Below are positions 19,714 to 62,738 of a stretch of 64,000 bases of DNA, in pieces. The notes beneath the pieces were generated by a model that did not search any database, had not been told where the DNA came from, and saw only the letters and a list, made by a program, of their open reading frames with translations. The position numbers and the translations under genes are program-made. Source of the DNA: Antedon mediterranea (lineage: Eukaryota; Animalia; Echinodermata); assembly GCF_964355755.1 (NCBI RefSeq), contig NC_092671.1, forward strand, positions 39,566,304 through 39,630,303. Reading direction: 5' to 3'. Numbering within the stretch: position 1 is the first letter of the stretch; the number at the start of each line of letters is the position of its first letter.

Positions 19714-19725
19714 TAAACAACTTAC

Positions 19726-31594: not shown

Positions 31595-31745
31595 TGTATG
31601 TACTATCTGTAGATATAAAGAATATTAAGTATAAACATAATATTGTAAAAAATATAACAGAACTTTTATAATCAAGATACTGATTAATGGTGGCCCATCT
31701 CTTGTTTTGTTGTTGTTTTGTCCTTCATTATGTCAATTTTATTGA

Positions 31746-33615: not shown

Positions 33616-33690
33616 TATATAAGAAGTTGACATGTAATGGACGGCACTTTCGTCTTCGAACCTTCAGGTTATGCTGCATCAAAGGTATGT
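33616..33690 (+). promoter_or_regulatory. Putative amylase-2 core promoter and non-coding first exon
   Basis: TATATAAG at 33616, gcACTTT at ~33646, AAG|GTATGT at 33685. Confidence 0.6.
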
Positions 33691-41511: not shown

Positions 41512-41630
41512 TATATAAAACAGAATCGTAGACTAGTTGACAGAAGTTATGATAGAACTTCTAGTTCTGTCATAGTTGAGATCAATAGTCTTCACTCACC
41601 GACGTGTTTGCAACAGTCAGCACGGTAAGT
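41512..41630 (+). promoter_or_regulatory. Core promoter and non-coding exon 1 of His-rich gene 1, with 5' hairpin
   Basis: TATATAAA at 41512; AGTTATGATAGAACTT at 41545; stem TGATAGAACT/AGTTCTGTCA; donor G|GTAAGT at 41625; acceptor ttcttcag at 42820. Confidence 0.75.
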
Positions 41631-42823
41631 TGAACAAGTATTTAATTTATTTCATTTCAATAAATATTTCAGTGTATTTAAAATAAATACCCCAGGGAAG
41701 AAGTATTTAAAAGCGATAATTAATAAATTATAGCAATCATATTTATTTGAAATTCATAGACAAATATGTATTAAAGTTTATCGTTTTGGAATAATAACCT
41801 CAAATTATGTTACCTCTCTTTATAATGATGAATGATAAAATAATATTAAACACTATGACATCCATATAGGTACAGGTATGTTATTATTTAGTCATTGCTT
41901 TAAGTACCATCTATACGAACAAATAATGAAGGTATGGGTGCAATCAGATGAAGTTTGCTATACATAGATTAGTCACAAAGTCATATATACCGATAAAACT
42001 ATTAACCATTACACTGTATTTCCAAACTTCTAGGCCTATTGAGTTTGTTACTCGTCTTTCGCAAGAATTATATTTTGTTATCTAAATAAATAACGATATT
42101 AAATCTCGTCGTAGCACGGACACCATTTGCAATTCATATTCTCTTTAGTTCGTTATGTTACTCATGTAGGCTTAGGCCTACGGTACTTATACCATTTTGT
42201 ATTCCATGAATTTTCAAATTTCTTCTCCAACATACTGATGTATTCAGACAAACATTTTAGCATAATAAATAAATACACAGGTTAATGTGTGTCTACACGA
42301 TACCTGATGGCTAGTTGATTTAAAAGTAACAAAACCATTGAAAGGGGTTTGACGTATCACAACCTTTTTTACACTGAAAGTTTTGGAAAATAAGGCAAAC
42401 AGAACCTTATACCAAAGCAAAAGTGAATCAGATCAGAGCGGACATTCGGACATTCGGACACAACATTTTAATATTATTATTAATATAATATATTAATAAT
42501 ATTATTAATATCAATGAATTACATAAACATTAATTATTTCTAATCAAACATCAAATGATAACAGCAAGCATTCGCATAAATATATCGGTATTTAATAACA
42601 GTCCTTATACCATCTTAACTTTAATATGTAGGCTATTATTGTACTGATTATTGATTATTATATTTTTATATGAGAAATGGTTCTCGAAACTCGAATTTCA
42701 GACTGTTTGTATCGTTATTTAATGCTTTGTTTATAATGTATCCGTATTTTTTAAATTATACATGAAAGTATTTATACAGTATTGTAACTTATTAATTAAT
42801 AATTGGTTTGTATTCTTCAGAAA

Positions 42824-45800
42824 ATGAAGGTGTTTCTGTTAGCCGCGCTGTTGGGGTGCGTGTTGCTCCTGCAAGTACGCGCTGAATCGCAGTCGTCTGA
42901 CCTGCAGGACGATCAAAATGAAGTCAATTCTCTTGACCTGAAGGTAAACCCAGATTTGGAATCAGCTGACACCAGTGAAGTCGACAAAGACATGTTGGCC
43001 TCATCAGGTTTAGATAACGCACAAGAAATTAGTAAAAGATGTCGGCGACGATCCTTTAGACGCCGTTACAGACGTCGATTTCGTTGCCGTAGACGACGTT
43101 ACAGACGTCGAATAATTAGACGTTCTCGACGACGATACAAAGTACGACGCCTCCGAGTCCAATATTATTGGCGCAGTGGTCGATTCTACAGACTGTGTAG
43201 ACGTGGTCGTCGTACGTATTGGCGTCGTGTAACTTTCAGATGTCGAGGTGGACGTTTCTACTGCCTATACCGACATGGACGTCGACGATATTGGCGCATA
43301 ATGCGTGCATACGTGCGTAACAGACATGTATATGTTCTTCGAGGACGTCGATATATCAGAACATCCACAGTGGTTTCCTCAAGTAGAATTGTCACAAGAA
43401 CCAGTACTGGTGGATATCTCGTTTGGCGTAACAGGCGTTTGTATTTCCGAGTTCGTTATGGGCGTCGTTGGATATGGCGTGTTGTTCGATACAGATGGAG
43501 CCATCGTCGACTATATTTCTATTGGGGAAGAAGATGGCGATTGGTAAGGTGCTACAAACGTGGGGGACGAATGTTCTTCTACCGCAATGGTCGCTACTAT
43601 ACCGGTGGCAGAAGAAGACCAGTGAACCTGTACTTCCGAGGACGACGTCTCTTCTGGACAACCGTCTACCGTGGACGAAGAACATGGCGTCCAGTTCGTT
43701 ATCGATGGATCCGTCATCGTCTATACTTCTACCCAACGTTTGGCCGTCATCGAAGATGGCGCCCTGCTCCAGTTTATTACCGCAACGGTTATATATATGT
43801 CTTCACCAATGGTCGTTACCGTCGTACTGGTACATACCACCCACTCAACCCAAGACGTATAAATATTAATCTTTACTGGCGTGGAAAAAGACTTTACTGG
43901 ACTACAATTTATCATGGACGAAGAGTATGGCGTCCCGTGCGTTACAGGTGGTCCCACCATCGTCTATATTATTACCCACTATTTGGTAGCCGTCGAAGAT
44001 GGCGTCTAGCACCGGTGTACTACCGCAATGGATATGTTTTCTTTTACCGAAATGGCCGCTATTTCAAACGAAGGTTCAGATTTCCTCAACCTCAAACAAC
44101 AGTGTTTTTGTTCTGGCGAGGCAGACGCCTATACTTCAGATGGGTATCACATGGTCGTGTTAGATGGCGAGTGGTGAATTATCGCTGGCGCAATCACCGT
44201 CTGGTGTACTACATGCCATTCGGGCCACATCGTGGCTGGCGTATTGCACCAACATATCAACGAAATGGTCACATTTATATCTACCACAACGGTCGGTATT
44301 TTATAAGTGGAGGCGGTCACCCACACGTCCCCCATAGACCAAGTCGTCCCATGTTTGTTTGGCGCGGTGGCCACCTGTACTATCGATATCGCCGTGGAAA
44401 CCGCTACTATTACCGTATTGTGACAACCAAACGATACCATGGACGGTACTTTTATTACTACGGCAACACATGGCACATGCTAACGTACTACTACATGAAT
44501 GGAGTGTCATACTACTTCCATAATGGTCACTACCTTGTCAAGCATAAAACAGTGATAAAGTATCATCATCATCATCATTATCATCACCATTATCACACAA
44601 GGTTCCATACTAAAATAGTCAAACATCATCACCATCACCATCATGTAAAAATACACAGGATACACCATAACAAATATATCCACCATAAGATAGTACACCA
44701 CCGTGTGGTAAAGCACTACCGATATAAAACAATACACCACCATCATATAAAGCATGTTCACCATCACATACATCACCGTCGTGTTGTAAACCATCTTCGT
44801 ATTAGACACCACTACATCAAACACCATAAATACTATACCCATCACCATCACCATTACCGGCACGTGCACCATCGCCATCACCATCATGTTTACAGAAATC
44901 ACGTGATAACTCGTCATATCAAACGATATCATCACCGATATATCACTCGACTTCATCATCATTATCGTCATTTCCATCACGTAGTAAACCATCATAAGTA
45001 CGTCAACCATGTGAAATATAGACACAGATACGTGAAACACCATCGACACTTTACACATCATCACCATCACTACCGCCATGTTCACCACAAGGTTCACCAC
45101 CATAGATATATAAATCATGTGCGCTACCGACACCAATATATTCGACGTCATCGACGCTTCACCCACCACCATCATCGACATTTCCACATTCACCATCGTA
45201 TACACCACCATAAATATATAAACCACGTCAGTGTACGACACGTGAACATAGTTCGTCATCGTCATCTTGTCCACAACCATCACCATTACCACCATTACCA
45301 TCACAGACACCATCACCATCGGTACATCAACCATGTTAGCACAAAACATATTTATGTAAAACATAACAGATACCTTACCCATCATCACCACCACTACCAC
45401 CATTTCCATCACAGAATACACCACCACCGGTATATCAACCACGTTATAAACCGACACAAATATATTCGACACCATGTCCACTTGACTCATCATCATCACC
45501 ATTACCATCACTACCATCACCGACACCACCACCATAAGTACGTCAACCATGTGTTGGTACGTCACAAGTACGTCAAACATAACAGATATCTGACTCACCA
45601 CCATCATAAATTCATTCACATTCATCATAGAATACATCATCACCGTTATGTCAACCATCTCCGTATACGTCATCGGTACGTGAAACACCACACGCACATC
45701 ACACTTCACCATCACCACCACTACCATATTCACCATAGGATCCATCATCATCGAATTGTCAACCATGTAATTACCCGCCATCACTACATCCGGCACCATC

Positions 45801-48800
45801 GTTACTTGACCCATCACCATCACCACTACCATCATATTCATCACCGCCTCCATCACCATCGGTACATAAACCATGTGATCACAAAACAACATTATATCAA
45901 GCATCATGTTCATATAACCCATCACCATCACCACTACCACCACATCCACCATAGATTGCACCATCACCGTACCTACACACACGTACTTACCCGCCACAGA
46001 TACATCAAGCACCACCGTTATTTCACCCATCACCATCACCATTACAAACATTACCACCACAGAATTCACCACCATCGTTACATTAACCATGTACTAACAC
46101 GCCATCGAAACCTGTACCGTCACCGACATGTGACCCACCATCACCATCATTACTACCATCATCACCACAGAATACATCACCACCGATATATCAACCACGT
46201 AATTACACGTAACATTTATATCAGACATCACAAGCATTACACTCATCACCACAACCGATTCATCCATATTCAACACCGAATCCAACACCACCGATATATA
46301 AACCATCTCCGTGTTATCTACAAATATCTCTACAAAAACCGTTACATTACACGTAATCATAAACAATACTTTAACATATACCACCGTATTAGGCATAACA
46401 AAATAATTAACCATCTTCGAATTGTTCATAGATATATAAGAACAAATGTGTACCGACATTACAACCATCATAAATACTTCCACTTGCACAAGCATTACCA
46501 TCACCACCGATACGTCAACCATGTCATAACACGTCATCGAAATATATACAGACACCGACACGTGACACACCATCACCATCACTACTACCATGTCCACCAC
46601 AGACTTCATCACCATAAATACATCAACCATATCTTGTACCGACATAAATACATAAAACACCACCGTTATCTGACATACCACCATCACCATTACGTACACG
46701 TACATCACCGTCTCCATCATCACCGTTACGTCAACCACGTGCTCACACGTCACAAGAATATATATCGTCACCGATGGGTAACTCACCACCATCACCATTA
46801 CCGACACATTCATCACCACAGACATCATCACAAATATGTTAACCATGTGATCACACGTCACCATAACGTTTACAGACATCATTACATCACGCACCACCAT
46901 CACCATTACCATCACATCCATCACCGACTCCACCATCACAAGTTTGTAAACCATGTGGTAATGCACCATCGCTATATTAAACACCATCGATATCTGACAC
47001 ACCATCACCACAAATTTATTCATATTCATCATCATATCCAACATCACCGATACGTTAACCACTTGAAAGTACGTCATCGGTATGTTAAACACCACAGATA
47101 TTTGACTCATCACCATCATAGAACAATCCATATCCACCATCGCATACATCATCACCGCACTATTAACCACTTGCTTGTAAGACACCATAATATAGTAACT
47201 CACCGCTACTTGACACACCATCACCACCACTACCGTCACATCCACCACAGAATCAATCACCATAAATACATCAACCATTTGCGAATCCGTCACAAATACC
47301 TATACAAACATCGATACTTGACGCATCACCATCATCACTACCACCACCATCACCACAGAATTCATCACCACCGTGTTATCAAACACTTAAGAATACAGCA
47401 TCGGTATATCAAGACTCACCAATACCTCACCCATCACCACCACCATTACCGCCATATTCATCACAGGATTCACCATCATCGTGTAGTGAACCATTTGCGT
47501 ATCAGACACAAATATATATACAAACATCGTCATGTGACCCACCATCATCACCACTATCACCATCACCACCACACGCACCATCATCATCGCTATGTAAACC
47601 ACCTTAAAATCAGTCACCGATACATAAGAACCAATCGGTACTTGACACATCACCATCACCACTATCACCACCATCATCACATTGTAAACCACCATCGAAT
47701 CGTTAACCACCTTCGTGTCCGACATCGATACGTGAAACACCACACATACCGTACCCATCATCACCACCATTACCATCACTACCACCACAGATTCCACCAT
47801 CACCGTTATATAAACCATGTGCGTACCAAACATGTGTATCATCGTCATCATCAATACCTAACTCATCACCATCACCACTATCACCATTACCATCATAAAC
47901 TGCATCACCACCGCTACATCAACCGTGTCATGGTGCATCATCACTACATCAGACGTAATCGCTACGTAACTCACCATCATCACCACTACCGTCACATTCA
48001 CCACCGACACCATCACCATCGATACATCAACCATATCAGAACCAAACATGTGAACGTATACCGACACCGATATCTAACCCACCACCACCATCGTACCATC
48101 CATCTGCATCACTGGCACCATCATCATCGGTACTTAAACCATATGCACGTGCGCCACAGGTACATCAAGAGGCATATCTACCGAACACGTCACCACCATC
48201 ACTACCGACATTACCACCACCATATTACCCATCATCGTACCGTGCATCATACTAAATTCCACTTGAAGACTATCTATCACCATAAATTTTTAACGCATCA
48301 CCACCATATCTTCAAGACTCTACACCATCACCATCATCATCACCGTACCATCCATCATCGACGAACCATCTACAAGTACAAATACCATCACCACTATAAA
48401 CATCATCACCACCACCACTACCACAAGCACGTGAGTTCATCGCATCATCATTTCCACATGGGATTCCATGGATCATCTTTGAACGTGTTCTTTAGCTGGC
48501 GTGGTGGACATATGTACCATAGAGTACGAATACACGGACGATACACATGGCAGATTGTCAGAACCCGTATGCGAAACCACCACATGTATTATTTCACAAA
48601 CGGTAGATGGTACATCGTTCCCAACTACACCCGTAATGGCCGCTTTTACTTCTATTTGGATGGTCGATACAGTTCCAATCCCATGCCATCCGGTGGCAGA
48701 TTTAGCATCCGATATTTCAGTACAAATGTAAGAATAATCTTCAGAGGTGGACGCATGTATTATCGCTATCCTTATGGCCGAGGCTATCGTCTACGACCCG

Positions 48801-49333
48801 TACGTTTCCGAAGAAGACACGGTCGCTTCTACTACTGGACCGGCAAAACTTGGCAATTCGTTCCTTTCTATAGAATCAACACAACTTACTTCTACTACAT
48901 AAATGGCCGATACTATCCATTCGGTGTCAGTGGTGGTAGTAGCAGCTACAGCAGCTTCAGCAGTGGAAGAATCTCTTTCCATAGACCATACGTATTCTGG
49001 AGAAGAGGTCGTTTCTACTGGAGAACAGTAAGAGGTGGTAAAACATATTGGCGTCCTCTTCGCTACAACCGTTACCGTGGTCACTACCGCTACTATTACG
49101 GACGACGATGGCATTGGGTTAATTACTACGTTAATGGAAACAGATACTACTTCTGGTTAAATAACCGTTACCATTCCGTTCCGTATAATTTCTCTCGTGG
49201 GTTCCATGGGTTCGGTAGATTTAGTCGTGTATACCGCTCATATGTTACAAGAACCGTTGGGCCAATCCACCGCCACTTCGTATCACATCGATATGGTCAC
49301 ATTAGACGATTTATTCATAGATTCCGTCGTTAA
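42824..49333 (+). CDS. Giant secreted His-rich, Arg/Tyr-rich repeat protein 1 (2169 aa), family not recognised
   Basis: Uninterrupted 6.5-kb frame. ATG at 42824 just after an acceptor; signal peptide MKVFLLAALLGCVLLLQVRA; acidic segment ending ISKR; 6+3 R/Y/W modules around a 36-aa His repeat core; aataaa at ~49442 and ~49530. Confidence 0.9.
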   Translation: MKVFLLAALLGCVLLLQVRAESQSSDLQDDQNEVNSLDLKVNPDLESADTSEVDKDMLASSGLDNAQEISKRCRRRSFRRRYRRRFRCRRRRYRRRIIRRSRRRYKVRRLRVQYYWRSGRFYRLCRRGRRTYWRRVTFRCRGGRFYCLYRHGRRRYWRIMRAYVRNRHVYVLRGRRYIRTSTVVSSSRIVTRTSTGGYLVWRNRRLYFRVRYGRRWIWRVVRYRWSHRRLYFYWGRRWRLVRCYKRGGRMFFYRNGRYYTGGRRRPVNLYFRGRRLFWTTVYRGRRTWRPVRYRWIRHRLYFYPTFGRHRRWRPAPVYYRNGYIYVFTNGRYRRTGTYHPLNPRRININLYWRGKRLYWTTIYHGRRVWRPVRYRWSHHRLYYYPLFGSRRRWRLAPVYYRNGYVFFYRNGRYFKRRFRFPQPQTTVFLFWRGRRLYFRWVSHGRVRWRVVNYRWRNHRLVYYMPFGPHRGWRIAPTYQRNGHIYIYHNGRYFISGGGHPHVPHRPSRPMFVWRGGHLYYRYRRGNRYYYRIVTTKRYHGRYFYYYGNTWHMLTYYYMNGVSYYFHNGHYLVKHKTVIKYHHHHHYHHHYHTRFHTKIVKHHHHHHHVKIHRIHHNKYIHHKIVHHRVVKHYRYKTIHHHHIKHVHHHIHHRRVVNHLRIRHHYIKHHKYYTHHHHHYRHVHHRHHHHVYRNHVITRHIKRYHHRYITRLHHHYRHFHHVVNHHKYVNHVKYRHRYVKHHRHFTHHHHHYRHVHHKVHHHRYINHVRYRHQYIRRHRRFTHHHHRHFHIHHRIHHHKYINHVSVRHVNIVRHRHLVHNHHHYHHYHHRHHHHRYINHVSTKHIYVKHNRYLTHHHHHYHHFHHRIHHHRYINHVINRHKYIRHHVHLTHHHHHYHHYHHRHHHHKYVNHVLVRHKYVKHNRYLTHHHHKFIHIHHRIHHHRYVNHLRIRHRYVKHHTHITLHHHHHYHIHHRIHHHRIVNHVITRHHYIRHHRYLTHHHHHYHHIHHRLHHHRYINHVITKQHYIKHHVHITHHHHHYHHIHHRLHHHRTYTHVLTRHRYIKHHRYFTHHHHHYKHYHHRIHHHRYINHVLTRHRNLYRHRHVTHHHHHYYHHHHRIHHHRYINHVITRNIYIRHHKHYTHHHNRFIHIQHRIQHHRYINHLRVIYKYLYKNRYITRNHKQYFNIYHRIRHNKIINHLRIVHRYIRTNVYRHYNHHKYFHLHKHYHHHRYVNHVITRHRNIYRHRHVTHHHHHYYHVHHRLHHHKYINHILYRHKYIKHHRYLTYHHHHYVHVHHRLHHHRYVNHVLTRHKNIYRHRWVTHHHHHYRHIHHHRHHHKYVNHVITRHHNVYRHHYITHHHHHYHHIHHRLHHHKFVNHVVMHHRYIKHHRYLTHHHHKFIHIHHHIQHHRYVNHLKVRHRYVKHHRYLTHHHHRTIHIHHRIHHHRTINHLLVRHHNIVTHRYLTHHHHHYRHIHHRINHHKYINHLRIRHKYLYKHRYLTHHHHHYHHHHHRIHHHRVIKHLRIQHRYIKTHQYLTHHHHHYRHIHHRIHHHRVVNHLRIRHKYIYKHRHVTHHHHHYHHHHHTHHHHRYVNHLKISHRYIRTNRYLTHHHHHYHHHHHIVNHHRIVNHLRVRHRYVKHHTYRTHHHHHYHHYHHRFHHHRYINHVRTKHVYHRHHQYLTHHHHHYHHYHHKLHHHRYINRVMVHHHYIRRNRYVTHHHHHYRHIHHRHHHHRYINHIRTKHVNVYRHRYLTHHHHRTIHLHHWHHHHRYLNHMHVRHRYIKRHIYRTRHHHHYRHYHHHITHHRTVHHTKFHLKTIYHHKFLTHHHHIFKTLHHHHHHHRTIHHRRTIYKYKYHHHYKHHHHHHYHKHVSSSHHHFHMGFHGSSLNVFFSWRGGHMYHRVRIHGRYTWQIVRTRMRNHHMYYFTNGRWYIVPNYTRNGRFYFYLDGRYSSNPMPSGGRFSIRYFSTNVRIIFRGGRMYYRYPYGRGYRLRPVRFRRRHGRFYYWTGKTWQFVPFYRINTTYFYYINGRYYPFGVSGGSSSYSSFSSGRISFHRPYVFWRRGRFYWRTVRGGKTYWRPLRYNRYRGHYRYYYGRRWHWVNYYVNGNRYYFWLNNRYHSVPYNFSRGFHGFGRFSRVYRSYVTRTVGPIHRHFVSHRYGHIRRFIHRFRR

Positions 49334-52300
49334 ATTTCTATCATAAACGACAACGTTTAGCAATCAAATGTATTAAACTACCAACAACCAATCCAAATAA
49401 TACAAACTATATGAGGTTCTTGTTTTGGCCAAAATAGAAAGAATAAAACTATTCAACAATATTTGATTTGTAAACAACAACCATTTGGAGGGATATATTC
49501 TCTTGTGTAGGAATAGAGAGATATTAAATAAAATAAAGTGAAACGAAACAAAATGCAATATTTGTCATTGTCTGTTTTCTGTGTCTGTCATTTTCAAGTC
49601 TCTGCCTCCCCTTCTCTGTCATATACTTCACTCACATTTCCAAATATAAGTTGATAATAAATAAAAATAAACACTATACTATGTATTGTGGAGATAAAAA
49701 AAACGATACATATACCGTATACGTGATACTCATAATATGAGGGGAAACATACGGGTTAAGCGGCCAACCCCTATTCATGATTGCAGAATCTTTAGAGGAA
49801 CCGACAGACGAAATAGTATATTTTTTCGTTTTTAGAATATGTGGTAGTGTAGTTACATATTACAGGTAAGTCGTTTATATTACACACTCATAACAAAAAT
49901 CGCTTTACAACATTTTGAGAAAAAGATACAAATTATTTTTCCTTTTCAATCATGACAATGTCACTTACCACAAGCTGGAAAACAATGAAAATGTCACATA
50001 ACATCATAAGCATGAAAACAAAAAGTTTTCTGAGCATGAGCAGAGTGATTTCAATGACTTGGGCGTATTTTCAATGGACACGTGTTGATACAACAAGTAT
50101 CAATGAGGGTGACTCAGTGACATGTAAGTAATACCCTGGCATGCAGGTAAAAGCCAATTGACAACAATTGAAAATCATCTGTCTCTTACAGTGAGTTCCA
50201 AACAACAAACGCATCCAACATGCATCATTTGACACATTTCTGTAACACCTTTTTATTATTTTTCTGAAAAGACATTCCTAACAAAAATACTGTGGAGAAG
50301 TCTTCATCAATTACTACAAACTCCTGATTCACGATATCAAAACAATGCAAGGAACTAGCTAAAACTAGTTACAGTAACTTTGTCAAATCAATATGTATTC
50401 TTCTCTTTCTAATCTTTTAGTCGGGAGAGCCATTTCGTTTACTGTAGGTATTTCCTTAAATTTATACAACAAAAATATACATAATGCAAAACAATATGGA
50501 CACAAAGAAGCAAGATAAAATCGGCATTATAATTTTTAGAGAGGAGCTATTTTTTATTTTTATTTTTATTATTATTTATTTATTACAGATCATATAACTT
50601 GTCTATATCTACAATAAAACCTAAGGAGACAAAAGCAAAGTAACTCCTAATAGGAGTGTCAACTGATATTGTTTGTCCGTAGTGTTAAAATAATGTATTG
50701 TCCTTCATTCGTTTCAAGGGAAAGCTTATAATGGGTGTCTGAATAGAGGTGTCCCCTGGATAGGAGGTGGTGGGGTGCTACTGTATAACGTTGAAATATT
50801 GTTGCATTAGAGTCATACAACATATTGCTATACTGTTGGTGTTCGACAAATATCCAAAACAGCGACACAGTACTGGTATAATTTTACTGTAATAATTTTA
50901 AGTTGAATATAATAAATAAAGTATTATAGAAGGGCCTACAACATAAATGTTATTCTTTCTTTTCATTTAAAATTTTGTTTCCCTTAAAAAACGTTCACAC
51001 TGTGACACAAACGGTGATTTCATGACTAAAATTCTGTCTACTATCAAACTGGTAGTCATATACCCAAATATGGTAATGATGTGACATCATCATGTCCATA
51101 TATGGTCACACATTTTTTGTCACATCAAGTTTGAGTGTTATACAGAGCTTCAAATATTATTTGCTTACATTGTAAGTTTTTAAAAAAATGTATGTATATG
51201 CATACAAAAAGTCATGATCGTCAATGTCACTGGTTTCTCAGAACCAGTTACCTCACTGGTTTCTCAGAACCAGTTACCAATATGTTGTTACTTTTGTCAT
51301 AGCTATGCACCCAAGAGCTTGCTTATTCGCAGAGTTTCAATAATATTTTACTGTAATAATAATCCCTTTTTAAAATTATTCTAATTCCACGTATTAGTGT
51401 AAAAATTAATTAGGTGAAAACAAATTTTACTTGAATGAACCGAGCTAAGTTTATGCTGTATAAAGAGGGACGTGGCTCGACAGATGGGCAAATGACACTT
51501 AAAAACACTTGTTTAGTTTCGTATAAATATTGCCATCTCTACCATATGTTACAAGTTTTAAGTAATGCTTTATAAACATCATAACGCATTCTTTTTTTAA
51601 AGGTTTTTTTGTATTTTCATATTTGTTGTAACTTTACTTTGTGAACTAATGTAGAGGCCCAATGATACTAAGGTCGTATCTGTAAGAAGCATCCGAGTTA
51701 AATATTGAATAGATGGCGTCGACAGGCCTACTGATAGATAGTGACACAAATGCAAATGTATAGTCATAGGTTATGAGGAGCTCCACCTTTTAGTCTATAT
51801 AGTCAACAACCTTGAATCCTCCTCCTCTCATTAGCTATCGTCAAACATCTCTAACATCACATTATAGCTATTAAATAAGACATTGCTGAATGTACCATCC
51901 TTTAATTAAATTCTTCTTGAATCATAATATTGATACTCATTTTTATATAAGACAAAAATACTAATATTCATTTTTGTCTGTAGTTCGTTGATGAACCTTT
52001 AGTGGGTTGTGACCCGGTCTTGTACTGAGGACTACTTGACATCTATAGATATTACACAACATCTGGACATATATTAGGCCTTCTCATTAGAATTTTAGAT
52101 ATTTTGGATTGGGTCTGAGGGGAAGACTGTTTAGTTTTATTTGTAAATTGGTCAACTTATCTCATTTTCCACCTTAGTTAACTATTTATCATCTTCTTTT
52201 AAAGTAACTTATTTTGTTTGTTTTTTTGTTATTTTGATTTTGAATATTTTCTTATTGTTGTTCGGGTTTTTAAGCTTTGCTTATGTTTAGTACCCTTTTC

Positions 52301-52854
52301 CATAACATTTTGATGACATATTGTTTCCTTATAACTTGTTCATGTCTCTTATTTTGACTGTCTATTACTCTTCTCCGTCTGGTGCTACTTTGATTCAATT
52401 TTACTGTGTTTTAAAAAAAAAAAAATCTTTATATATTTTTTTATTTTTGTAAATCCAAAGGTAAATTACTGAAAAATGACTATTCAGTGGGTATTAGTAG
52501 CTGGATTCCAATGGAGAAATAAAATAAGCAAAAAGCTAAATCAAAACGATAAAATAAAATAGCCAGAAAAATTAGCAGAGCTTTCGGGCAAGACTAGCCC
52601 TTTAACAGTGCAAGTGAGAGTACTTGGACAGAATTGAGAATATAAAGCAGACAAGCGCTGCTTGAGTGGACTAGAATAAAAAAAATAAAAACAAAGGAGG
52701 CACAGGCTGGTTAATAGAGGGTGGAGAGAGTAACAGTAACAAACAATGGTAGATATAAACAATTTAGGAAAATGGAACTTTCGAGAAATTCGAGACTCGC
52801 TTTATAAATTTAACCATTACAAATGACATACAGTAAATTAATCATGGCCAGTTA

Positions 52855-53375
52855 AGTATAATTAATAGAAAACTAAACTAGAGGGTACTCCGAGAGTACA
52901 AACCTCAGCCTCAGTATAATTAATAGAAAACTAAACTAGAGGGTACTCCGAGAGTACAAACCTCAGCCTTAGTATAATTAATAGAAAACTAAACTAGAGG
53001 GTACTCCGAGAGTACAAACCTCAGCCTTAGTATAATTAATAGAAAACTAAACTAGAGGGTACTCCGAGAGTACAAACCTCAGCCTTAGTATAATTAATAG
53101 AAAACTAAACTAGAGGGTACTCCGAGAGTACAAATCTCAGCCTTAGTATAATTAATAGAAAACTAAACTAGAGGGTACTCCGAGAGTACAAACCTCAGCC
53201 TTAGTATAATTAATAGAAAACTAAACTAGAGGGTACTCCGAGAGTACAAACCTCAGCCTTAGTATAATTAATAGAAAACTAAACTAGAGGGTACTCCGAG
53301 AGTACAAACCTCAGCCTTAGTATAATTAATAGAAAACTAAACTAGAGGGTACTCCGAGAGTACAAACCTCAGCCT
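52855..53375. repeat. 58-bp tandem array, 9 copies
   Basis: agtataattaatagaaaactaaactagagggtactccgagagtacaaacctcagcctt. Confidence 0.97.
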
Positions 53376-53892
53376 ACTGTAAAATTTCCTTACATAAAAT
53401 GTCACCGGAAAATATCTATATATTTTTACATTTTTTTTTAATTAGTTGTAAGTGTAAATAGGCTAACTGCACACTACAAAGTTGTGGATGAGAGTTTGGT
53501 GTAATGGTTATGTATCCAGCCTCTCACAGTTGAGATCGCTGGTTTAAGCCCCGCTGAGGTTTTTTTTTGTGGACCTTGATCTTTGACCCTGACCCTTCAA
53601 AATTTAACCACAATTACATGATGAGTCATTGGTCTTTGTGGATAAGTTTGGTGAGAATCGGATAAAAACTGTGGTCTCTAGGCAGTAAAATAGGTTTTTG
53701 TTAGTTGTGACCTTGACCTATGACCTTTTCCCTTCAAATTCGAACTCGTCCGAGCTTTTGGGGTATAGATCATTGTGGCCAAATTTGGTGAGAATCGGAT
53801 AAAAACTGTGGCCTCCAGCCTGTTCACAGACAGACAGACACACACACAAACATACAGGGGTGAAAATATAATCTCCTTGGCGGAGGTAATAA
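53339..53892. mobile_element. Helentron/DINE-like non-autonomous element
   Basis: Left end actaga-gtactc/gagtac-aacctcagcc; tgacctt subrepeats; (GACA)n tract; right end ctccttggcggaggtaata. Confidence 0.6.
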
Positions 53893-54042
53893 CTAGAAAA
53901 TGTATAATACCGTTGTAGTCTTACTGTTGTTGAAGCAAGTAAGCACGTTCACACTGAACCTGGATTGGTTGCCGGATAAAAAATGGCTTCTATACCGTGT
54001 ACATTAGAATCGTTCATACGTTTTGTACAAAACGAAAACTAA

Positions 54043-54192
54043 AACTCTGTCTACACTATTAAACTATTTTGACAAAAAAAAGTGTGATGTGCCCAAATAT
54101 GATAGTGATATGCCCAAATATGGTAGTGATATGATCATCATCATGTCCATATATGGGCACATCACATACAGTTTGATAGTGTAGACAGAGCT
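54043..54192. mobile_element. MITE family with TIR ctctgtctacactatcaaact; other copies at ~20620, ~25820, ~39108, ~51030
   Basis: ctctgtctacactat...tagtgtagacagag; shared core catcatcatgtccatatatgg. Confidence 0.75.
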
Positions 54193-54922
54193 TTAAAATA
54201 ACCCGGAGTTTTCATCAAATTTTCTCCAAAGTCGGGCTCAGGAACGATAATGTCAAACACCGACAATATACGTTCATTCAAATCTGATTCGATGCCTGAA
54301 ACCACTACCGTAGTAGTAAACGTAATGTAATAAAAATAACCAATTTGGAGTGTTCATCATCATCAAAAACAATGAAATGAAGTTTTAAAAAGAAATCAAC
54401 AGGTTCATTTTTATTCACGCTATAGTATGGTTATCTTCTGTAATGTACGAGTTCTTTCAAAAACTCAAACTGGTTTGAATGAGTGTAGACGAAATCTTTC
54501 TATATGACAACTGACGACACAGGAACAAGTCAATTGTGCGCATGCGGGGAAGTTGGAACATGCTCTATATTCGTCTACACAGTTTTAATTGTTTTCATAC
54601 TGTAGTCTATTGGTGGTAGGTCATCAGTTTTAATCAAGCGAAAGCTTCCTAAAACTCCGGGCAAAGTACATTACATTTTAATATTTTCAAGAAAAAAATT
54701 GAAAACAAACAACATAGACCTATCTTCATTTAGTGCATTTTATTTCGAATGCTTTTAATCGATATTGAACATTTTCCTCAAATTTATAAACAATATGATT
54801 TGACAATATCACTGGATATTTTTACTGTATTTTTCAGAATTATTACCATTTATGGCTTTTGATCTTATTCCAGCGTTGAATATATTTAGAAATGATTATT
54901 TGCTATCTAGATATTATATTCT

Positions 54923-57900
54923 TTAATAGGAATAGGATGATGAACTGGAGGAAGAGTGCCAGCTACCACCACCAGAACCACCGGAGCTGGAACTGGAATG
55001 AAAAGATGAAAATCCACCGCTTACGAAGTGTCCGCCTCCAGACACGCCGCCAGTTTGAATGTAACGTCCGTTGTGAAGGTAATTCAAACGCCCATTTTTA
55101 ATGTAACTGCGCATAAGCATCCATCTAGCGGTTCGGCCGTTTTTCCATAAGAAGTAAAAGCGACCATGACGTCTTCTATACTTGACAGGGCGCCATCTGT
55201 AACGGTGATTGCCAAACTGCAGACGGGCGTAGAAACGTCCGTGCCTCCAGTACATGGTGGCGCTTGTTCTGATCACACGTGTTCTGAATGATGAGATTCT
55301 AGCCCGATAATATCGACCATTGTGTAAGAAGTAATAGTACCCACCGCTTGTGTAGCTTCTTACTATGCTCCATCTACGACTTCTGTTACGCGCGGGCAAT
55401 GCGTACAAAATACCATTTCGTCGACGGTACGTTACTCTAATAAGGGTAGTACGCCTACCACGACGGTATTTGTAGTATAGAACATTATTTCGCATAACAT
55501 ATGGGGTGTATCGGATTCTAAACTTCATATGACGGGGATGTGTTCGATAACGGCCATGGGAAAAACTATAGTAACGGTTATTCATTCGATAAAATCTCAT
55601 CAAATGCCATCTGCGATTCCAGAGGAAGTAGTAGCGACCGTGACGTTTACGGTAGTTGACTGGTCTCCAGCTGGGTCGTCCTCTTGGTCCTCTTACAGCA
55701 TAGTAGAATTTTCCACCTCTCCAGTAAAATTGTCTTGGGTAGTTGGACTGCCTAAATATAACTTTGTTATATCGGCCATTTGACCAATAGTAGTAAACAC
55801 CTCTGCGTCTGTAAAACATAGTGAACACCCAAGTTTTACCATTCCAGTAGAACAAACGACCATGTTGTCTGCGGAATCGGACGGGTCTTAGTCGGCGTCC
55901 AAATCTGTAGTAGAGTCGGTTTCCACGCCAATAGACATGGCAAAGGCTGGGGTTAAAACGTCTCATTCGTGGCCTATATTGGGGCTGTAGATAATAACGG
56001 TTATTGAACCAGTAGTAATAGCGACCGTGGTTGTTATAGAAGTTTACAGGGCGCCAAGTGTAACGACCGTGGGATGGCCAGTAATAGTAGAATCGTCCAT
56101 GAATGCGGCGATAACGCACTGGTCGCAACATGTAACGACCACCTCGTCGGACGTAATAGTACAATCGATTATTTTTCCACATAATAAATGTGTTGCGTTG
56201 AATGTAGCCAGGGCGATATCTAACCATGTAGTGACCATTATTCCAGTAATAGTATCCACCATTGAGGTTGTAGGAAGTCACATAGTGCCAGGTGTTATTG
56301 TAAAAATAACTTAGGCGACCGTGGTGCTTTCGGTAACGAACAGTGGTCCATACGTAGCGGTTGCCCCGTCGAACACGATAGTACAAACGTCCATGTCGCC
56401 AGGAAATATTAGCTGAATAAGAGTAGGTATGGTGGTGTACATGACGGTAATGGTGGTGGTGATGGTGAAGATGATGTGTTTTGTGCACGTGTTTGGTCAC
56501 TCTTCGTACGTGATACTTGTGTTTGACGTGGTAGTGATGGTGATGACGGTGTACGATGTGTCGATGGTAAACATGCTGGTGATGGATGCGGTTCACGTGT
56601 TTGTAGACGTTTTGGTGATGGTACTTATGGTGTACTTTATAGTGGTGATGGTAATGATGGACTCGATGCCTGTGGTGCACGTGTTTGTAATGCACTATCG
56701 TGATTCGATGTGTGATTATTTTGTGGTGATGACGATGGTGCGTATGGTACACGTGATGGTGATGGTGTACGTAATGACGATGGTGTAGATGTCGGTGATG
56801 TGTAACAAGTATGTTGTGTCTTATGAGACGATGGTGGTATCTATGGTGCACGTGGTGGTAATGGTGGTGGTGATGGATGTTGTGATGGTGGTGTACATGG
56901 CGATGATGCGTTGTTAGAATATGATGATAGATGTGGCGATGGTGGAATCTATGATGAACATGGTGGTAGTGATGATAATGGTGGATGCGATGGTGATGGT
57001 GCACGTGTCGGTGGTGCGTAATTGTGATGTGGTGGTGGATGGTTCTGAGATGGTATCGGTGATGGGCGTGGTAGTAATGATGGTAATGATGTATACGGTG
57101 ATGATGGTGGATGTGACGATGATGTCTTACGTGAATGTGGTGCACAATTGTACGCAGATGGTATCTATGGTGTACGTGGTGCCGGTGGTGGTAGTGATGA
57201 ATATGATGGTGGTGATGCACATGTCGGTGGTGTGTTGTGACAATATGGTGGACAACGGTACGGTGATGGAATCGGTGGTGAGTGTGATACACGTGATGGT
57301 AATGGTGGATATGATGATGATGCTGCATGTGACGATGATGCGTTACAGTAACATGATGCAGCACGGTTCTAAGGTGATATTTATGATGTACATGGTAGTA
57401 ATGATGATAGTGGTGGATGTTGTGACGATGGTGGACATGTCGGTGATGTGTTATACGAATATGATGAAGGACTGTTTTCAAATGGTATTTGTGATGTCTG
57501 TGGTAATAATGGTGATAATGGTGGACATGATGGTGGTGATGGAGATGTCGGTGGTGTGTAACGGTCACGTGGTGATACACAGTACGTGTGTGGTACCTAT
57601 GGTGGATATGGTAATTGTGGTGGTAGTGGTGGATTCGGTGAATGTGGTGAAGATGCCTGTGATGTGTTATACGAATATGATGGTAAATGGTACGGTGATG
57701 GTATCTATGGTGGGCGTGGTAGTAGTGATGGTAGTGGTGAACGTAATGCCTGTGGTGCAGGTTTTTGTGGTGCGTAATATGAATGTGATGTACGATTGTT
57801 CGGAGATGGTATCGGTGATGAGTGTGGTAATGGTGATGGTAATGATGGATGTAATGCGTGTGGTACAGGTGTCGGTGATGAGTTATATGTATGTGATGAG

Positions 57901-60900
57901 CCACATATCGGTGGTGGTATCTGTGATGGGTATGGTAGTAGTGGTGGTAATGGTGAATGGCATGTCGATGGTGCAGATGCTTGTGGTGTACCACGTTAAT
58001 ATGGTGATAAATATGTCGGTGATGGTATCGGTGATGGGTATGATAATGGTGATGGTAATGATGGATCTGGTGGAAGTGATGGACATGTTTATGATGCAAC
58101 ACATTTATGTGGTGGTAGACGGTACGGTGGTGGTATCTATGGTGGATATGGTAGTAGTGGTGGTAATGATGGATATGGTGATAATGATGAATGTGTCTTC
58201 TGTGGATCACATTAATGTGATGTAGGACCAGACGATGATAATATCTGTGGTGAGTATGGTAATAGTGATGATAGTGATGGATATAGTGTCGATGATGTAA
58301 GTGTCGGTGATGTACTATAGTTATATAATTGTATATATTTCTGTGGTGGAATCTATGGTGAACATGGTAATGATGATGGTGGTGATGGATATAATGGCGA
58401 TGGTATCTATGTAGGTGATGGATAGTCTTGATGTGGGTAACTATATACCGAGTGATATACCTATGGTATCGATGATAGGTATGTATATAGTGGTGAATGT
58501 AATACCGATGGAAAACGTCTTTAATGTGGTTAACGGTAACATGGACATACACTATTCGTTTACGGTAATTATGGTGCACGTGGTAGTAGTGGTGGTAGTG
58601 ATGAATGTAATGCTTGTGGTATATATGACGATGGTGTGAATAAGTTATATAGTGATATACATTTCGGTGATGGTATCTATGGTGGACATGGTAATAATGG
58701 TGATAATGGTGGATGTGGTGTCGGTGGTGCAAATGACGGTGATGCACAACAGTTATATGGTGATATATGGTGCGATGGTGGTACCTGTGGTGAACATGGT
58801 AATAATGGTGGTAGTGATGGATAGCGTGACGGTGGTGGACATGCCTGTGGTGGGCAATGTGGATATGATGGTAAATGGTACGATGGATATACCGATGGTG
58901 TCGGTGGTAGTAATGATGATAATGATGGATGTAGTGACGATGGTGTAAATGACGATGGTGAATTATTTTGATATGGTGGTAGATATGGCGGTGATGGTAT
59001 TTATGGTGAACATGGTAATAGTGGTGATAATGATGAACGTAGTGGTGATGATGAAGGTGGCGATGATGTGTTATTTTAATGTGATGCCTAATATGTCTAT
59101 GGTGGTATCTGTGGTGAATATGGTAATAATGGTGATAGTGATGGTGATAATGTCTGTGGTGCAGATGACGACGATGGAGGACGTGGATATGGTGTACCAC
59201 GGTACGAAGGTGGTATCGGTGATGAACGTGGTAGTAATGATGATAGTGGTGTACATAATGCGTGTGATGTACGTGTCGGTGGTGCAGAGTGTGTATATGG
59301 TGGACTAAGAGTCGGTGATGGTATCTATGATGGACATGGTAATAATGGTGATGATGGTGTATACGGTGATGATGGTGCACGTGTTTATGGTGCACTATAC
59401 GTATATGGTGATAGAAGGTACGGTGATGATATTTATGGTGGACATGGTAGTAGTGGTGGTAGTGGTGAATACGATGGTGATGATGCACGTGTCTATGGTG
59501 GGTCACGTGGATATGATGGTAAACACGTCGATGGTGGTACCTATGGTGAATGTGATAGTAATGATGGTGGTGATGGATATGGTGATGATGGTGACGGTGA
59601 AGGTGGTGCGTTATCAAACGATGGTGATATATGATACGATGGTGGTAGCGGTGATGAGTGTGGTAATAATGATGATAGTGGTGGTGGTAATGACGATGGT
59701 GTAAGTGACGGTGATGATTTATTGTGATATGGTGTCTAATGGTATGCAGGTGGTATCTATGGTGCACATGGTGAATATGGTGATAATGATGAATAGTGTG
59801 TCGGTGGTGCACGTGCTTATGGTGATTCACACGAATATGGTGAAGGACTGTGTGAAGGTGATACCGGTGGTGAACATGATGCCGATGGTGGTAATGGTGA
59901 ATATTATGGTAATGGTGTCGGTGTCGGTAATGCGTAACATGAATATGGTGTATTATGTTACGGTGATGATACCTATTGTGAATGTGACGGTAATGGTGGT
60001 GATGGTGAATTATATGCCTATGGTATATATGCCTGTGGTGATTATAACGGAGATGATGGTACACATGACGGGTGTGGTATCGATGAGTCACGTGATAGTG
60101 ATGATGATAGTGGTGTCTTAGGTGAGTATGGTGCTTATGACGGTGTAAAGTCACGTAAACATGACGATTCTTGATAACATGATGATAGCGATGATGGGTG
60201 TGTATCAGATGCTTATATTTGTGGTGATAATGATGATGGTGAAGATGCACGTGTCGAATGCGCACCTTTGTTTTGTAGTGATGCACGTGGTGATGGTGAT
60301 GCCTATGCCTGTGTATAATATGTGTGTGCGTCAAATAATGACCATGGTTGTAATAGTAGTTGCGGCCGTTCAAATAGTAATAACGGACAATATGCCATGT
60401 TTTGTGGCCTCCGTAACCCCACCAAAAGTAGTAGCGGCCATGCACTTTTCTGTAACGGACCAGGCGCCAGGTATAGCGGTTGTTATGATACCACCGCATG
60501 TACAGACGTCCGCCACGGAATCTAAAACGAAGAGTTCCGATCGAAGGCCTAAAGTTGTAACGACCATGGTTCCAATAGTATGTGCGTCCATTGATAGTGT
60601 AATAGCGAACAATGGACCAGATATATCGGTGGCCTACGCGATGGTAGTAGTATGTGCGTCCATGATATCTTCTATATTTGACAGGACGCCAGCGGTAACT
60701 GTTTCCAACACGATAGCGTAAGTAGAGGCCATTGCTACGCCAGTAAAAATGAATCTGTCCATTTGTGCGATAGTAGGTTACACTAACGCTAGGAAGCCTT
60801 AATCTTGGGTAATATTGGTAGCGACCATTTCTGAAGATGAACATTCGTCCAAATATTCTAATATTATGAACCAAAGACCAGATGTACCGTCTTCCTACAC

Positions 60901-61513
60901 GTCTCCAGTACAAGAATCTGCCACCGGATCGTCTGAATCTCACCACTTGCCATACATATCGGCCACCTCTCCGTCGAAAGATGTACAGACGGTTGTTTTT
61001 CCACTGGAAGAATGTTTTGTATCGACGGGGACGGTAGGAGGAAGTGCGATATCTTCCATGACTCCAAAAGTACCTTCGTCCTCTAGATGTAAAGGCTCTT
61101 ACCAAAACCCATCGGTAACGGCCTCCCCAGCGCATGAAAACATAAATGCGACCACGGACTACGCGTTGTCTTTTAAGGTATCGGTTGAAGTACCGACCGC
61201 CTCTTCGCCAGCGGACATACATACGACCACCACGTCTGTAAAACCAGTAACGTACCCGGTAAATCTTTTTATAACGTCTTCTTCGTGAAGGTAGACGATA
61301 ACGTACTACCTTGGTGCGCGTATGAGTAAGTGAATACTTGTCTACGTCATCGACATTATTGGACGATTCACTCACATCTGGTCTGCTGGCGGACAGAATA
61401 TCTTTGTCGACTTTATCGACAGCATCTTCAGTTCGACTTACTGGTGCTTCGGAGAGTGAACTGTGTACTAAGACGATGCACCCAAACAGAAAAACCAACC
61501 GAATCACCGACAT
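54923..61513 (-). CDS. Giant secreted His-rich, Arg/Tyr-rich repeat protein 2 (2196 aa), paralogue of protein 1
   Basis: Signal peptide MSVIRLVFLFGCIVLVHS; acidic segment with VDKDIL; 4+6 R/Y/W modules around a 36-aa His repeat core; Gly/Ser tail; acceptor ttttgacag 9 nt before the ATG. Confidence 0.9.
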   Translation of the reverse strand: MSVIRLVFLFGCIVLVHSSLSEAPVSRTEDAVDKVDKDILSASRPDVSESSNNVDDVDKYSLTHTRTKVVRYRLPSRRRRYKKIYRVRYWFYRRGGRMYVRWRRGGRYFNRYLKRQRVVRGRIYVFMRWGGRYRWVLVRAFTSRGRRYFWSHGRYRTSSYRPRRYKTFFQWKNNRLYIFRRRGGRYVWQVVRFRRSGGRFLYWRRVGRRYIWSLVHNIRIFGRMFIFRNGRYQYYPRLRLPSVSVTYYRTNGQIHFYWRSNGLYLRYRVGNSYRWRPVKYRRYHGRTYYYHRVGHRYIWSIVRYYTINGRTYYWNHGRYNFRPSIGTLRFRFRGGRLYMRWYHNNRYTWRLVRYRKVHGRYYFWWGYGGHKTWHIVRYYYLNGRNYYYNHGHYLTHTHIIHRHRHHHHHVHHYKTKVRIRHVHLHHHHYHHKYKHLIHTHHRYHHVIKNRHVYVTLHRHKHHTHLRHHYHHHYHVTHRYHTRHVYHHLRYNHHRHIYHRHIIHHHHHYRHIHNRYHHRNIIHHIHVTHYRHRHHYHNIHHYHHRHHVHHRYHLHTVLHHIRVNHHKHVHHRHTIHHYHHIHHVHHRYHLHTIRHHITINHHRHLHHRHYHHHYHHYYHTHHRYHHRIIYHHRLITHHLHRHHHHHIHHHHHYYHIHHRYHHRRVYHHIHVTHHRHVHHHHRIHHYHHYYHVHHKYHHRTFYHHIRIVHHKHVHHHHRIHHHHHYYHVHHRYHHRLLVHHIHTLHHRHVHHTHYVHHYHHYYHVHHRYHLRTVVHHIHVLHRRHLHHRHYHHHYHHYYHIHHRYHHRHIRHHIKITHHRHLHHHHYVHHYHHYYHVHHKYHHRHIYHHIKIIHHRHLHHRHYIHHYHHYYHRHHRYIHRTIYHHIHIAHHRHVHHRHAIHHYHHYYHVHHRYHHRTIYHHITVVHHRHLHHRHHIHHYHHYYHVHHRYHHRNVYHYITYSHHRHIYHKHYIHHYHHYYHVHHNYRKRIVYVHVTVNHIKDVFHRYYIHHYIHTYHRYHRYITRYIVTHIKTIHHLHRYHRHYIHHHHHHYHVHHRFHHRNIYNYITIVHHRHLHHRHYIHHYHHYYHTHHRYYHRLVLHHINVIHRRHIHHYHHIHHYHHYYHIHHRYHHRTVYHHINVLHHKHVHHFHQIHHYHHHYHTHHRYHHRHIYHHINVVHHKHLHHRHAIHHYHHYYHTHHRYHHRYVAHHIHITHHRHLYHTHYIHHYHHHYHTHHRYHLRTIVHHIHITHHKNLHHRHYVHHYHHYYHAHHRYHHRTIYHHIRITHHRHLHHIHRIHHYHHNYHIHHRYHTRTVYHHVTVTHHRHLHHHHHVHHYHHYYHRHHKYHLKTVLHHIRITHHRHVHHRHNIHHYHHYYHVHHKYHLRTVLHHVTVTHHRHMQHHHHIHHYHHVYHTHHRFHHRTVVHHIVTTHHRHVHHHHHIHHYHHRHHVHHRYHLRTIVHHIHVRHHRHIHHHHRIHHYHHYYHAHHRYHLRTIHHHITITHHRHVHHHHRIHHYHHYHHVHHRFHHRHIYHHILTTHHRHVHHHHNIHHHHHYHHVHHRYHHRLIRHNILVTHHRHLHHRHYVHHHHHVYHTHHRHHHKIITHRITIVHYKHVHHRHRVHHYHHHYKVHHKYHHQNVYKHVNRIHHQHVYHRHIVHRHHHHYHVKHKYHVRRVTKHVHKTHHLHHHHHHYRHVHHHTYSYSANISWRHGRLYYRVRRGNRYVWTTVRYRKHHGRLSYFYNNTWHYVTSYNLNGGYYYWNNGHYMVRYRPGYIQRNTFIMWKNNRLYYYVRRGGRYMLRPVRYRRIHGRFYYYWPSHGRYTWRPVNFYNNHGRYYYWFNNRYYLQPQYRPRMRRFNPSLCHVYWRGNRLYYRFGRRLRPVRFRRQHGRLFYWNGKTWVFTMFYRRRGVYYYWSNGRYNKVIFRQSNYPRQFYWRGGKFYYAVRGPRGRPSWRPVNYRKRHGRYYFLWNRRWHLMRFYRMNNRYYSFSHGRYRTHPRHMKFRIRYTPYVMRNNVLYYKYRRGRRTTLIRVTYRRRNGILYALPARNRSRRWSIVRSYTSGGYYYFLHNGRYYRARISSFRTRVIRTSATMYWRHGRFYARLQFGNHRYRWRPVKYRRRHGRFYFLWKNGRTARWMLMRSYIKNGRLNYLHNGRYIQTGGVSGGGHFVSGGFSSFHSSSSSGGSGGGSWHSSSSSSSYSY

Positions 61514-62621
61514 GGTTCTTAACTGTCAAAAAAATTTAAAAAAATAAAATTAAATTACTGTATGTAATATTACTAAAGTTTCGACAATATACTACTATAC
61601 TGTAGGTATACTACTGTTGCTAAGGCTACTTTTATTTACTAATACTACCACACTTAAAATACCATGCGTTTTATTATTTGTCAATACTAAATGACAGTTG
61701 CAAGCTTGAAAATACATTTGGGCATAATCGCATTTTTACTATCCGGACAAATTGTTATTATATAAAAAAAATAGTTTAATAGTGCATTTCTTTAGTTGTA
61801 AATTTAGTAGTTTAGTAGTAGTTTAATCATGGATGGCGTAAATGGAGAAACAACGACTACACATCAAAGGGACGGTCAAAGGGACGGTCACATCAAAGGG
61901 ACGGTCAGTGGTATGCAATACCAAACTGCCAAACCCGAATCAAGGTAAGTAATTACTAAATATGATTGTACTCTAAATGACTAGACGTATTCCACTGAGG
62001 AAATAGGCCTGTAATAAATACAGTACCCTATATCCTATATTAATTAATTAAATAATAATGTAGTAGTATTGCAAGTAATCTAATAGCTTACTACTTATTG
62101 TTTTTATACAATATTTTTTGAACTAGAAAACACAAAGCTCTTCGAGGTTCCAAACGAGTTCTTATTATTTTTGGACAGAATTTGTTGTAATATACTGCAA
62201 TTTGGTGTGGACTATGTTCAATATACATAAATATCTTATGAAATTTAATTTGGCCGAAATATCTATACAATTGTGTATTACTGTGTATATAGACGCTAAA
62301 TAAGCATACATTATGTTTATATACGCCTGTATCTATCTTACTCTGCGTACACAAGTTCTAGTTAACGACCATTATCGCTTTGCAAACCAATCTAAACAAG
62401 ATATTTACTAAGAAATTTAAAATATTTATTTTCAAACTTGCGATTTGTTATTTTACTTTCTGTTTCCTAAATAAACTATTCCTGTCATCGTTTATAATTA
62501 CAATTCCAGTATATAATTGATGGCAAGGATCCTGCATAAAAAAGTTTACAATTATGTTTTCGCAGGACCCTTTTACATAAAAACATAAAACATAGCAATT
62601 ATAAATATTTGTTTTAGTTGA

Positions 62622-62738
62622 ACTTACCTATGTCAGATAGGAACCAGCAAGTTTGTCTCAGTTGATCTGTGTTCTGATAGAACTTAGTGGAAGTTCTATC
62701 ATAACTCCTGGTAAAATTGCTAATTGTTCATTTATATA
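62622..62738 (-). promoter_or_regulatory. Core promoter and non-coding exon 1 of His-rich gene 2, with 5' hairpin
   Basis: Minus strand TATATAAA 62738-62731; AGTTATGATAGAACTT from 62706; perfect 11-bp stem within 62675-62701; donor AG|GTAAGT at 62627. Confidence 0.75.

Follow-up and report, generated by a model that had tools for sequence, protein, structure and literature searches.

What use would a feather star have for two neighbouring genes, each encoding a protein of about 285 kDa in which more than a quarter of the residues are histidine? The question is raised by a stretch of 64,000 nucleotides (nt) of Antedon mediterranea, hereafter the window (assembly GCF_964355755.1, contig NC_092671.1, forward-strand positions 39,566,304 to 39,630,303), whose right-hand part carries two long convergent open reading frames, here called genes A and B (Table 1). 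A first-pass annotation, made from the letters of the sequence, had taken their products for a pair of giant paralogues with one common plan, and so they are, at 2169 and 2196 amino acids (aa) and 38% identity from end to end. I propose that A and B are paralogous, likely secreted, dumbbell-shaped material proteins, with predicted rods that would condense via polyanions and, likely, through bridges between histidine and metal, and I hold this to be about as apt to be right as wrong. The argument begins with the genes, moves to the repeat that makes up most of each protein, and then to the ends.

Gene A is spliced. In the public sequencing run X1 the cover is limited to the exons of the gene, and a contig links 41623 to 42820 over a GT..AG intron, while the DNA-like runs X3 and X6 read through that intron, with contigs of 9.9 and 10.5 kilobases (kb) along the gene. 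No run is on record as RNA, and X1 is recorded only as a guess; I judge it to be RNA from the splice joint and the exon-only cover. (The comparison of runs skipped some repeat stretches of gene A, and run X2, labelled organism B, gave only short pieces of low depth and is left out of the interpretation.) Gene B is transcribed as well, on modest evidence: of the three loose contig ends sampled from X1, one matches it perfectly over 30 letters and another with a single mismatch. The third, which lies before 44837 and is at least 255 letters long, yielded a 30-nt sample without a match in the window at three or fewer mismatches; it may belong to a further paralogue with a histidine core or to a divergent allele. 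Absent transcripts and frameshifts had been named at the outset as grounds for giving up the two proteins. Transcripts are present, and the three runs that cover gene A list no frameshift in it: six of the 11 coding differences on the list are silent, a stop is not among them, and the sole indel listed is of 3 nt.

The two genes also begin alike. A TATA box followed by a 17-nt motif occurs twice across the window, against an expectation of 0.00 to 0.04, once ahead of each gene, and as read from the sequence both follow the same plan of a non-coding exon, an intron of 1.1 to 1.2 kb and one coding exon. The common promoter motif and exon plan suggest that A and B are co-regulated.

Most of each protein is a repeat with a period of 36 aa (autocorrelation 0.57 in A and 0.65 in B, where the shuffled maxima are 0.24 and 0.29), within which runs a weaker sub-period of 6 aa. 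Each core holds 33 well-fitting units, without any indel, in a common register and all at offset 0, flanked by degenerate units, and the distance from the last module before the core to the first module after it is 1322 aa in A and 1312 aa in B. The figure of 16 to 18 histidines per 36 aa, first given for both proteins, holds for B (17.2 per unit on average) and is too high for A (14.7). Glycine and proline are absent from the 33 units, glycine plus alanine make up 0.0% and 0.5% of the cores, and arginine plus lysine 13-17%. Histidine occupies 12 of the 36 columns in A, and 15 of the 36 in B, in at least 80% of the units, and the core of A has in addition one column of asparagine (30 of 33 units). 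At units 15-16 of the 33 there is a histidine-poor node in both proteins. The profiles of histidine per unit agree between A and B when laid at offset 0 (r = 0.66, reached in 11 of 2000 permutations), and it is the node that drives the agreement.

How old is this repeat? Among pairs of units that share a histidine, 49.3% of 6300 in A and 50.1% of 7775 in B use different codons for it, which is to say that the choice is randomised. Replacement divergence between units is only 0.28 and 0.23, with mean identities of 57% and 63%. Since silent sites have been randomised and the amino acids kept, the repeat is old and has been selected for both its sequence and its length. The histidine-rich proteins of jaw, beak and byssus with which A and B have been compared range from small to medium in size and are for the most part disordered. 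Old paralogues of 285 kDa in which the number of repeats and a landmark at the centre stay constant point to a different design, an ordered, ruler-like rod with regular ladders of imidazole.

The core is flanked on both sides by modules rich in arginine, tyrosine and tryptophan, 19 of them in all (six and three in A, four and six in B), 64-76 aa long and 25-66% identical to one another. In leave-one-out profile searches every one of the 19 scores 41-82 bits, and the best of 100 shuffles of each reaches at most 6.8. AlphaFold confidently predicts the module, of about 70 aa, to be an eight-stranded all-beta domain (predicted local distance difference test, pLDDT, 92; five models 88-92). It is probably a new, uncatalogued domain. 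Pfam recognises no family in A or B, nor NCBIfam in three of three proteins. Foldseek gave the module model no match at E <= 0.001, and its top rows, hairpin repeats of the choline-binding/CROP kind, are weak (E 0.29-0.46, template-modelling (TM) score 0.21-0.26, root-mean-square deviation (rmsd) 9-15); none of 48,161 chains compared with the fold reached Z >= 5 (best 3.1), which is no proof of a new fold. There are faint touches of WW domains, from the module profile to Prp40 (E 0.012 over 18 positions, with WW absent from the structural-search listing) and from single modules among the 19 to WW_2 (E 0.027) and WW (E 0.14).

Run against 1.84 billion representatives, the module profile found two matches and one true relative, P0123 (XP_071965392.1; E 2.4e-10), an uncharacterized A. 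mediterranea protein of 342 aa encoded on another contig. It consists of a signal, an acidic pro-segment, a run of arginine and cysteine and two modules, without a histidine core. The run, at residues 67-155 and following the signal peptide, is long and protamine-like, and a short version occurs in gene A. The other match, P0124, a repeat protein of 2708 aa (E 6e-4 over 29 positions), proved on inspection to be a chance one. Further searches added no relative: a word-index search with residues 190-580 of A gave 544 candidates, of lengths 1192-3796 only and none significant; one with the module alignment gave 7539, none at E <= 1, a weak negative since it missed P0123, which is in the collection; a metagenome scan gave 70 pattern matches, none confirmed; and a protein atlas gave no usable feature match, its structure rows (TM score <= 0.38) coming from a poor model. 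The first-pass annotation did not recognise the family, and no characterised family matched in these searches. The exact proteins A and B are absent from a collection of 15 billion that does contain the neighbouring genes, which suggests that they are overlooked by standard annotation. Crinoids other than A. mediterranea gave no match to module queries, in a collection that lacks A and B themselves and to which the histidine core was never put; with A and B absent from it, the range of the family beyond A. mediterranea stays open. No paper on A or B was found by title or start of abstract, and supplementary tables of crinoid transcriptomes or proteomes could contain them. A and B thus belong to a family that is real, apparently undescribed and to date seen in one species.

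Both proteins are likely secreted, judging by a hydrophobic stretch at the N terminus and the absence of any further membrane-like segment in the hydropathy plot (the signal peptides are called from hydropathy and pattern only). Arginine (16.4% in A, 14.4% in B) and tyrosine (11.4%, 13.0%) follow histidine (26.6%, 30.0%) in abundance, and the calculated isoelectric points (pI) are 11.6 and 11.2. The impression that about one acidic residue follows the pro-segment was exact: the mature proteins have one each, D1946 in A and D999 in B, and all others lie within the first 68 residues, whereas aspartate and glutamate make up 12% of the neighbouring amylase. By calculation from pKa values, each protein carries a charge near +930 at pH 5.5, which falls to +432 (A) or +371 (B) at pH 8.1; the pro-segments contribute only -10 and -6.

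The core is likely a beta-solenoid of unsettled geometry, to judge by its weakly predicted structure. A model of four units is all-beta with a turn every 36 residues (pLDDT 62, predicted TM score 0.56). The structures that come closest to it are beta-solenoids, namely a SufB/D-like one (Z 7.3, rmsd 3.5, 120 residues aligned) and the CsgA fibril (Z 6.2, rmsd 9.2, 91 aligned), where a Z under 8 may mean only a common arrangement. As in that class of protein, the repeat length is fixed without indels and the conserved columns are in register.

I suggest that the 33 gap-free repeats stack into a rigid, fixed-length rod of the beta-solenoid kind, with a cluster of cationic and aromatic beta domains at each end. 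Beta-solenoids rise 4.8 Å per rung. If one 36-mer forms one rung, then some 33-35 rungs would make a rod of roughly 16-17 nm, along which the conserved histidine columns would run as ladders. Stored in an acidic granule, where the charge would be near +930, the ladders would be protonated. At the pH of seawater about 500 charges would be lost and the imidazoles freed for zinc or copper, while the remaining charge of arginine and lysine, together with the tyrosines and tryptophans of the heads, would bind an anionic partner (a sulfated glycan, a sulfated pigment or phosphate). As pH rose, bridges of histidine and metal between rods of fixed length would lock a dense solid or gel. I give this sequence of storage, condensation and locking an even chance. 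It differs from the coacervation triggered by pH that had been offered as a precedent, which fits poorly, because arginine and lysine keep the proteins strongly cationic in seawater and because the core looks ordered and fixed in length; the first reading as a whole is partly supported. With +370 to +430 remaining at pH 8, a change of pH cannot by itself condense A or B, and a polyanion, a metal or both are needed. The squid beak protein HBP coacervates because histidine is its only charged residue, a route impossible for A and B unaided.

Several points, besides the modest Z scores, weigh against such a rod. Three of the five core models fall below pLDDT 40, the alignment behind them consists of 57 overlapping windows of two proteins and so favours a repetitive fold, and the core model found no match in Foldseek at E <= 0.001. 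Node aside, the units of A and B are not collinear one to one (offset 0, z = -0.25). The heads contain many possible convertase sites (R-x-[RK]-R occurs 19 times in A and 11 times in B, counted over the whole proteins), and cleavage there may break the full-length molecule into pieces. Finally, P0123 has the modules and no histidine core, which is therefore not needed by every member of the family.

Do known proteins work in this way? The closest working analogy is the Nereis jaw protein Nvjp-1, with the Glycera protein MTP, which is secreted, contains tyrosine and has about 27% histidine. At the pH of seawater Nvjp-1 becomes rich in beta structure, and with zinc it assembles into fibrils (PMC9999432); it is the precedent for the step proposed for pH and zinc. 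It is, however, a protein of 32-40 kDa with 36% glycine and GGH/GH repeats, a coil at pH 5 (PMC9999432), whereas A and B have an exact register of 36 aa, no glycine in the 33 units and folded end domains. HBP likewise has tandem repeats rich in histidine and tyrosine and a charge that drops with pH, but these are pentapeptides with glycine and alanine, neutral in seawater (PMC9999432), and A and B differ in their period, their arginine and lysine and their lasting charge. The first-pass annotation was right that the secreted histidine-rich proteins of jaw, beak and byssus are shorter or rich in glycine and alanine; A and B, at 284-288 kDa, are neither. The mussel protein mfp-4 is a histidine-rich linker of the plaque, described as a random coil of 90 kDa, and its pI of 8.4 and its size set it apart from A and B. 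The preCols of mussels are rod-like triblocks with histidine-rich ends. A and B would be the inverse, with histidine in the central rod, arginine and tryptophan in the end domains, and no collagen.

Also from an echinoderm is the sea urchin Transformer (Sp185/333), which is secreted, has two exons and contains a histidine-rich region with repeats; but its gene is under 2 kb, its first exon encodes the leader, it has a glycine-rich region and RGD, and it is disordered and hypervariable (PMC5491942). Genes A and B have a coding exon of 6.5 kb behind a non-coding first exon, an N terminus of arginine, tyrosine and tryptophan, and a single mature aspartate that lies outside any RGD. The beta-helix of SufB/SufD and the functional amyloids CsgA and FapC represent the class to which the weak core model is drawn (Z 4.0-7.3), yet they share 0-6% identity with a core that is of animal origin and, as modelled, laddered with histidine. 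With refractive proteins of the crystallin or reflectin kind A and B share a high calculated refractive increment (dn/dc), 0.21 by a per-residue table. By analogy, then, A and B would work most like the histidine and metal proteins of jaw and byssus, yet they fall outside Nvjp-1, HBP, mfp-4 (by size and pI) and Transformer alike. In the main text of a review of marine adhesive proteins (PMC12817120) the word crinoid does not occur.

Where might such a material be found? The likeliest sites, as candidates only, are the inclusions of the saccules or an adhesive or mucus granule, and the refractile saccules are the most testable. (Other candidate sites are the larval adhesive pit (PMC11336682), tube-foot mucus and the attachment of embryos.) A more specific form of the proposal would make A and B the bulk contents of the saccules along the food grooves, their aromatic, histidine and arginine residues giving a high refractive index for a lens or a defensive store. 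I regard this as tentative, and more doubtful than the general proposal. Highly refractive bodies that are plentiful in Antedon, the saccules have no known function, and a role as lenses has been proposed for them (bioRxiv 10.1101/2024.08.14.607903). They bind sense RNA probes non-specifically (PMC9793003), as a polycation would, though such sticking has other explanations. The calculated dn/dc of A and B, 0.2095 and 0.2105 by a per-residue table of which only the arginine and lysine values were checked (PMC11118217), exceeds that of 121 amylases (0.196 +/- 0.001) and of beta-gamma-crystallins (0.2009; PMC4047532), but any sequence rich in histidine, arginine and tyrosine would be expected to do so. 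The case is circumstantial. Somewhat less probable again is the fullest version, that the building blocks of the saccules are length-calibrated beta-solenoid rods with ladders of histidine and a new aromatic polycation domain at both ends, in ordered, high-index bodies locked by metal and polyanion. If this version were true, an organ whose function has been in dispute since the 1880s would for the first time be open to molecular study, and metal-binding protein materials would gain a new design, an ordered rod in place of a disordered chain of glycine and histidine. The sequences of A and B make crinoid saccules and secretions directly testable.

An alternative view is that A and B are precursors, from which convertases free modules and histidine-rich pieces as cationic antimicrobial or defensive peptides, or effectors like Transformer, that act against anionic microbial surfaces or deprive microbes of metal. 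A signal, an acidic pro-segment closed in A by Lys-Arg, and a cationic mature region with 56 (A) and 41 (B) dibasic pairs are what one would look for, and histidine-rich secreted immune proteins do exist in sea urchins (PMC5491942). However, only 7 and 6 of those pairs fall inside the cores of about 1300 aa, excised peptides have no need of a fixed count of units or a fixed position of the node, the alleles of gene A differ little, and four of four Transformer features tested are missing. I consider this view improbable. More improbable yet is a store of nitrogen or metal, or a sink for detoxification, held in granules with no mechanical role. At about 2.15 nitrogen atoms per residue and some 580-660 histidines per chain the proteins would serve, and a role as energy reserve has been proposed for the saccules (bioRxiv 10.1101/2024.08.14.607903), but composition would suffice for that, and register without indels, conserved columns, cores of equal length and folded ends would be unneeded. 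Both views fit the fixed register less well than does the proposal of a material built of rods. That the reading frames are an artefact of repeats rich in CAT and CAC, or of misassembly, as low complexity and the absence of both exact proteins from the 15 billion might hint, is refuted by the spliced transcript of gene A with its exon-confined cover and by the saturated silent sites, to which the long DNA contigs, the common promoter and the annotated third paralogue may be added.

Table 1. Genes A and B and the parts of their products, in window positions
Feature	Position	Strand	Remark
Gene A core promoter	41512..41561	+	TATA box and 17-nt motif, exact copy in gene B
Gene A non-coding exon 1	41557..41624	+	5' end approximate; 67 letters of the X1 contig precede the joint
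Gene A intron in 5' untranslated region (UTR)	41625..42820	+	1196 nt, GT..AG; joint in run X1, absent from X3 and X6
Gene A coding sequence	42824..49333	+	Single exon, 2169 aa, 284 kDa
A predicted signal peptide (aa 1-20) and acidic pro-segment (aa 21-72)	42824..43039	+	Ends in Lys-Arg; putative cleavage
A Arg/Cys-rich run, aa 73-107	43040..43144	+	Resembles that of P0123
A six N-terminal Arg/Tyr/Trp beta modules	43145..44545	+	
A 33 in-register 36-aa His units, aa 643-1830	44750..48313	+	Degenerate units on both sides
A His-poor node, aa 1147-1218	46262..46477	+	6 and 7 His per unit
A three C-terminal modules	48479..49183	+	
Gene B Gly/Ser-rich tail	54926..55048	-	
B six C-terminal modules	55049..56419	-	
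B 33 in-register 36-aa His units, aa 473-1660	56534..60097	-	
B His-poor node, aa 977-1048	58370..58585	-	9 and 14 His per unit; carries the sole mature acidic residue
B four N-terminal modules	60323..61261	-	
B predicted signal peptide and acidic pro-segment, aa 1-59	61337..61513	-	
Gene B coding sequence	54923..61513	-	One open reading frame, 2196 aa, 288 kDa
Gene B predicted 5'-UTR intron	61523..62627	-	1105 nt, GT..AG; from sequence, donor nearly identical to that of A
Gene B TATA box, common 17-nt motif and predicted non-coding exon 1	62628..62738	-	

A duplicated block of amylase and antistasin-like genes, with remains of retroelements, takes up the left two thirds of the window, and nothing links these in function to genes A and B. 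Along all of its 340 aa the adjoining amylase reading frame is 100% identical to an A. mediterranea record (the next match is at 57%), and both amylases of the window agree exon by exon with named records of the species. The duplication is a tandem one, of 12198-25295 and 28073-40655, with pieces about 76-90% identical, and each copy contains an alpha-amylase (+) and an antistasin-like gene of several exons (-). The second amylase (35346-37106, +; 741 aa, XP_071941611.1) is extended at its C terminus by about 220 aa in which cysteine, tryptophan and glycine abound and for which Pfam has no match; the first copy (483 aa) ends ahead of this extension. The antistasin exon of the second copy (38704-39118, -) is broken across two frames, possibly as a pseudogene or through an assembly error; its counterpart at 20217-20630 is open.

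Among the remains of mobile elements, a reading frame at 2346-4412 (+) combines an integrase, a part resembling SH3 and a protease domain of OTU-like type (E 1e-10), and is probably the tail of a retroelement with a captured deubiquitinase-like domain. Two fragments of Penelope-like elements (6050-7764 and 30666-31551, -), with weak matches to reverse transcriptase and GIY-YIG, are 98% identical over 805 nt and are interrupted by AT microsatellites. Satellite arrays lie at 8683-11839 (period 132 nt), 14464-15456 (55), 20881-21838 (3/21), 22718-23535 (17) and 52855-53375 (58), and an (ATG)n array, probably intronic, produces long open frames in several phases.

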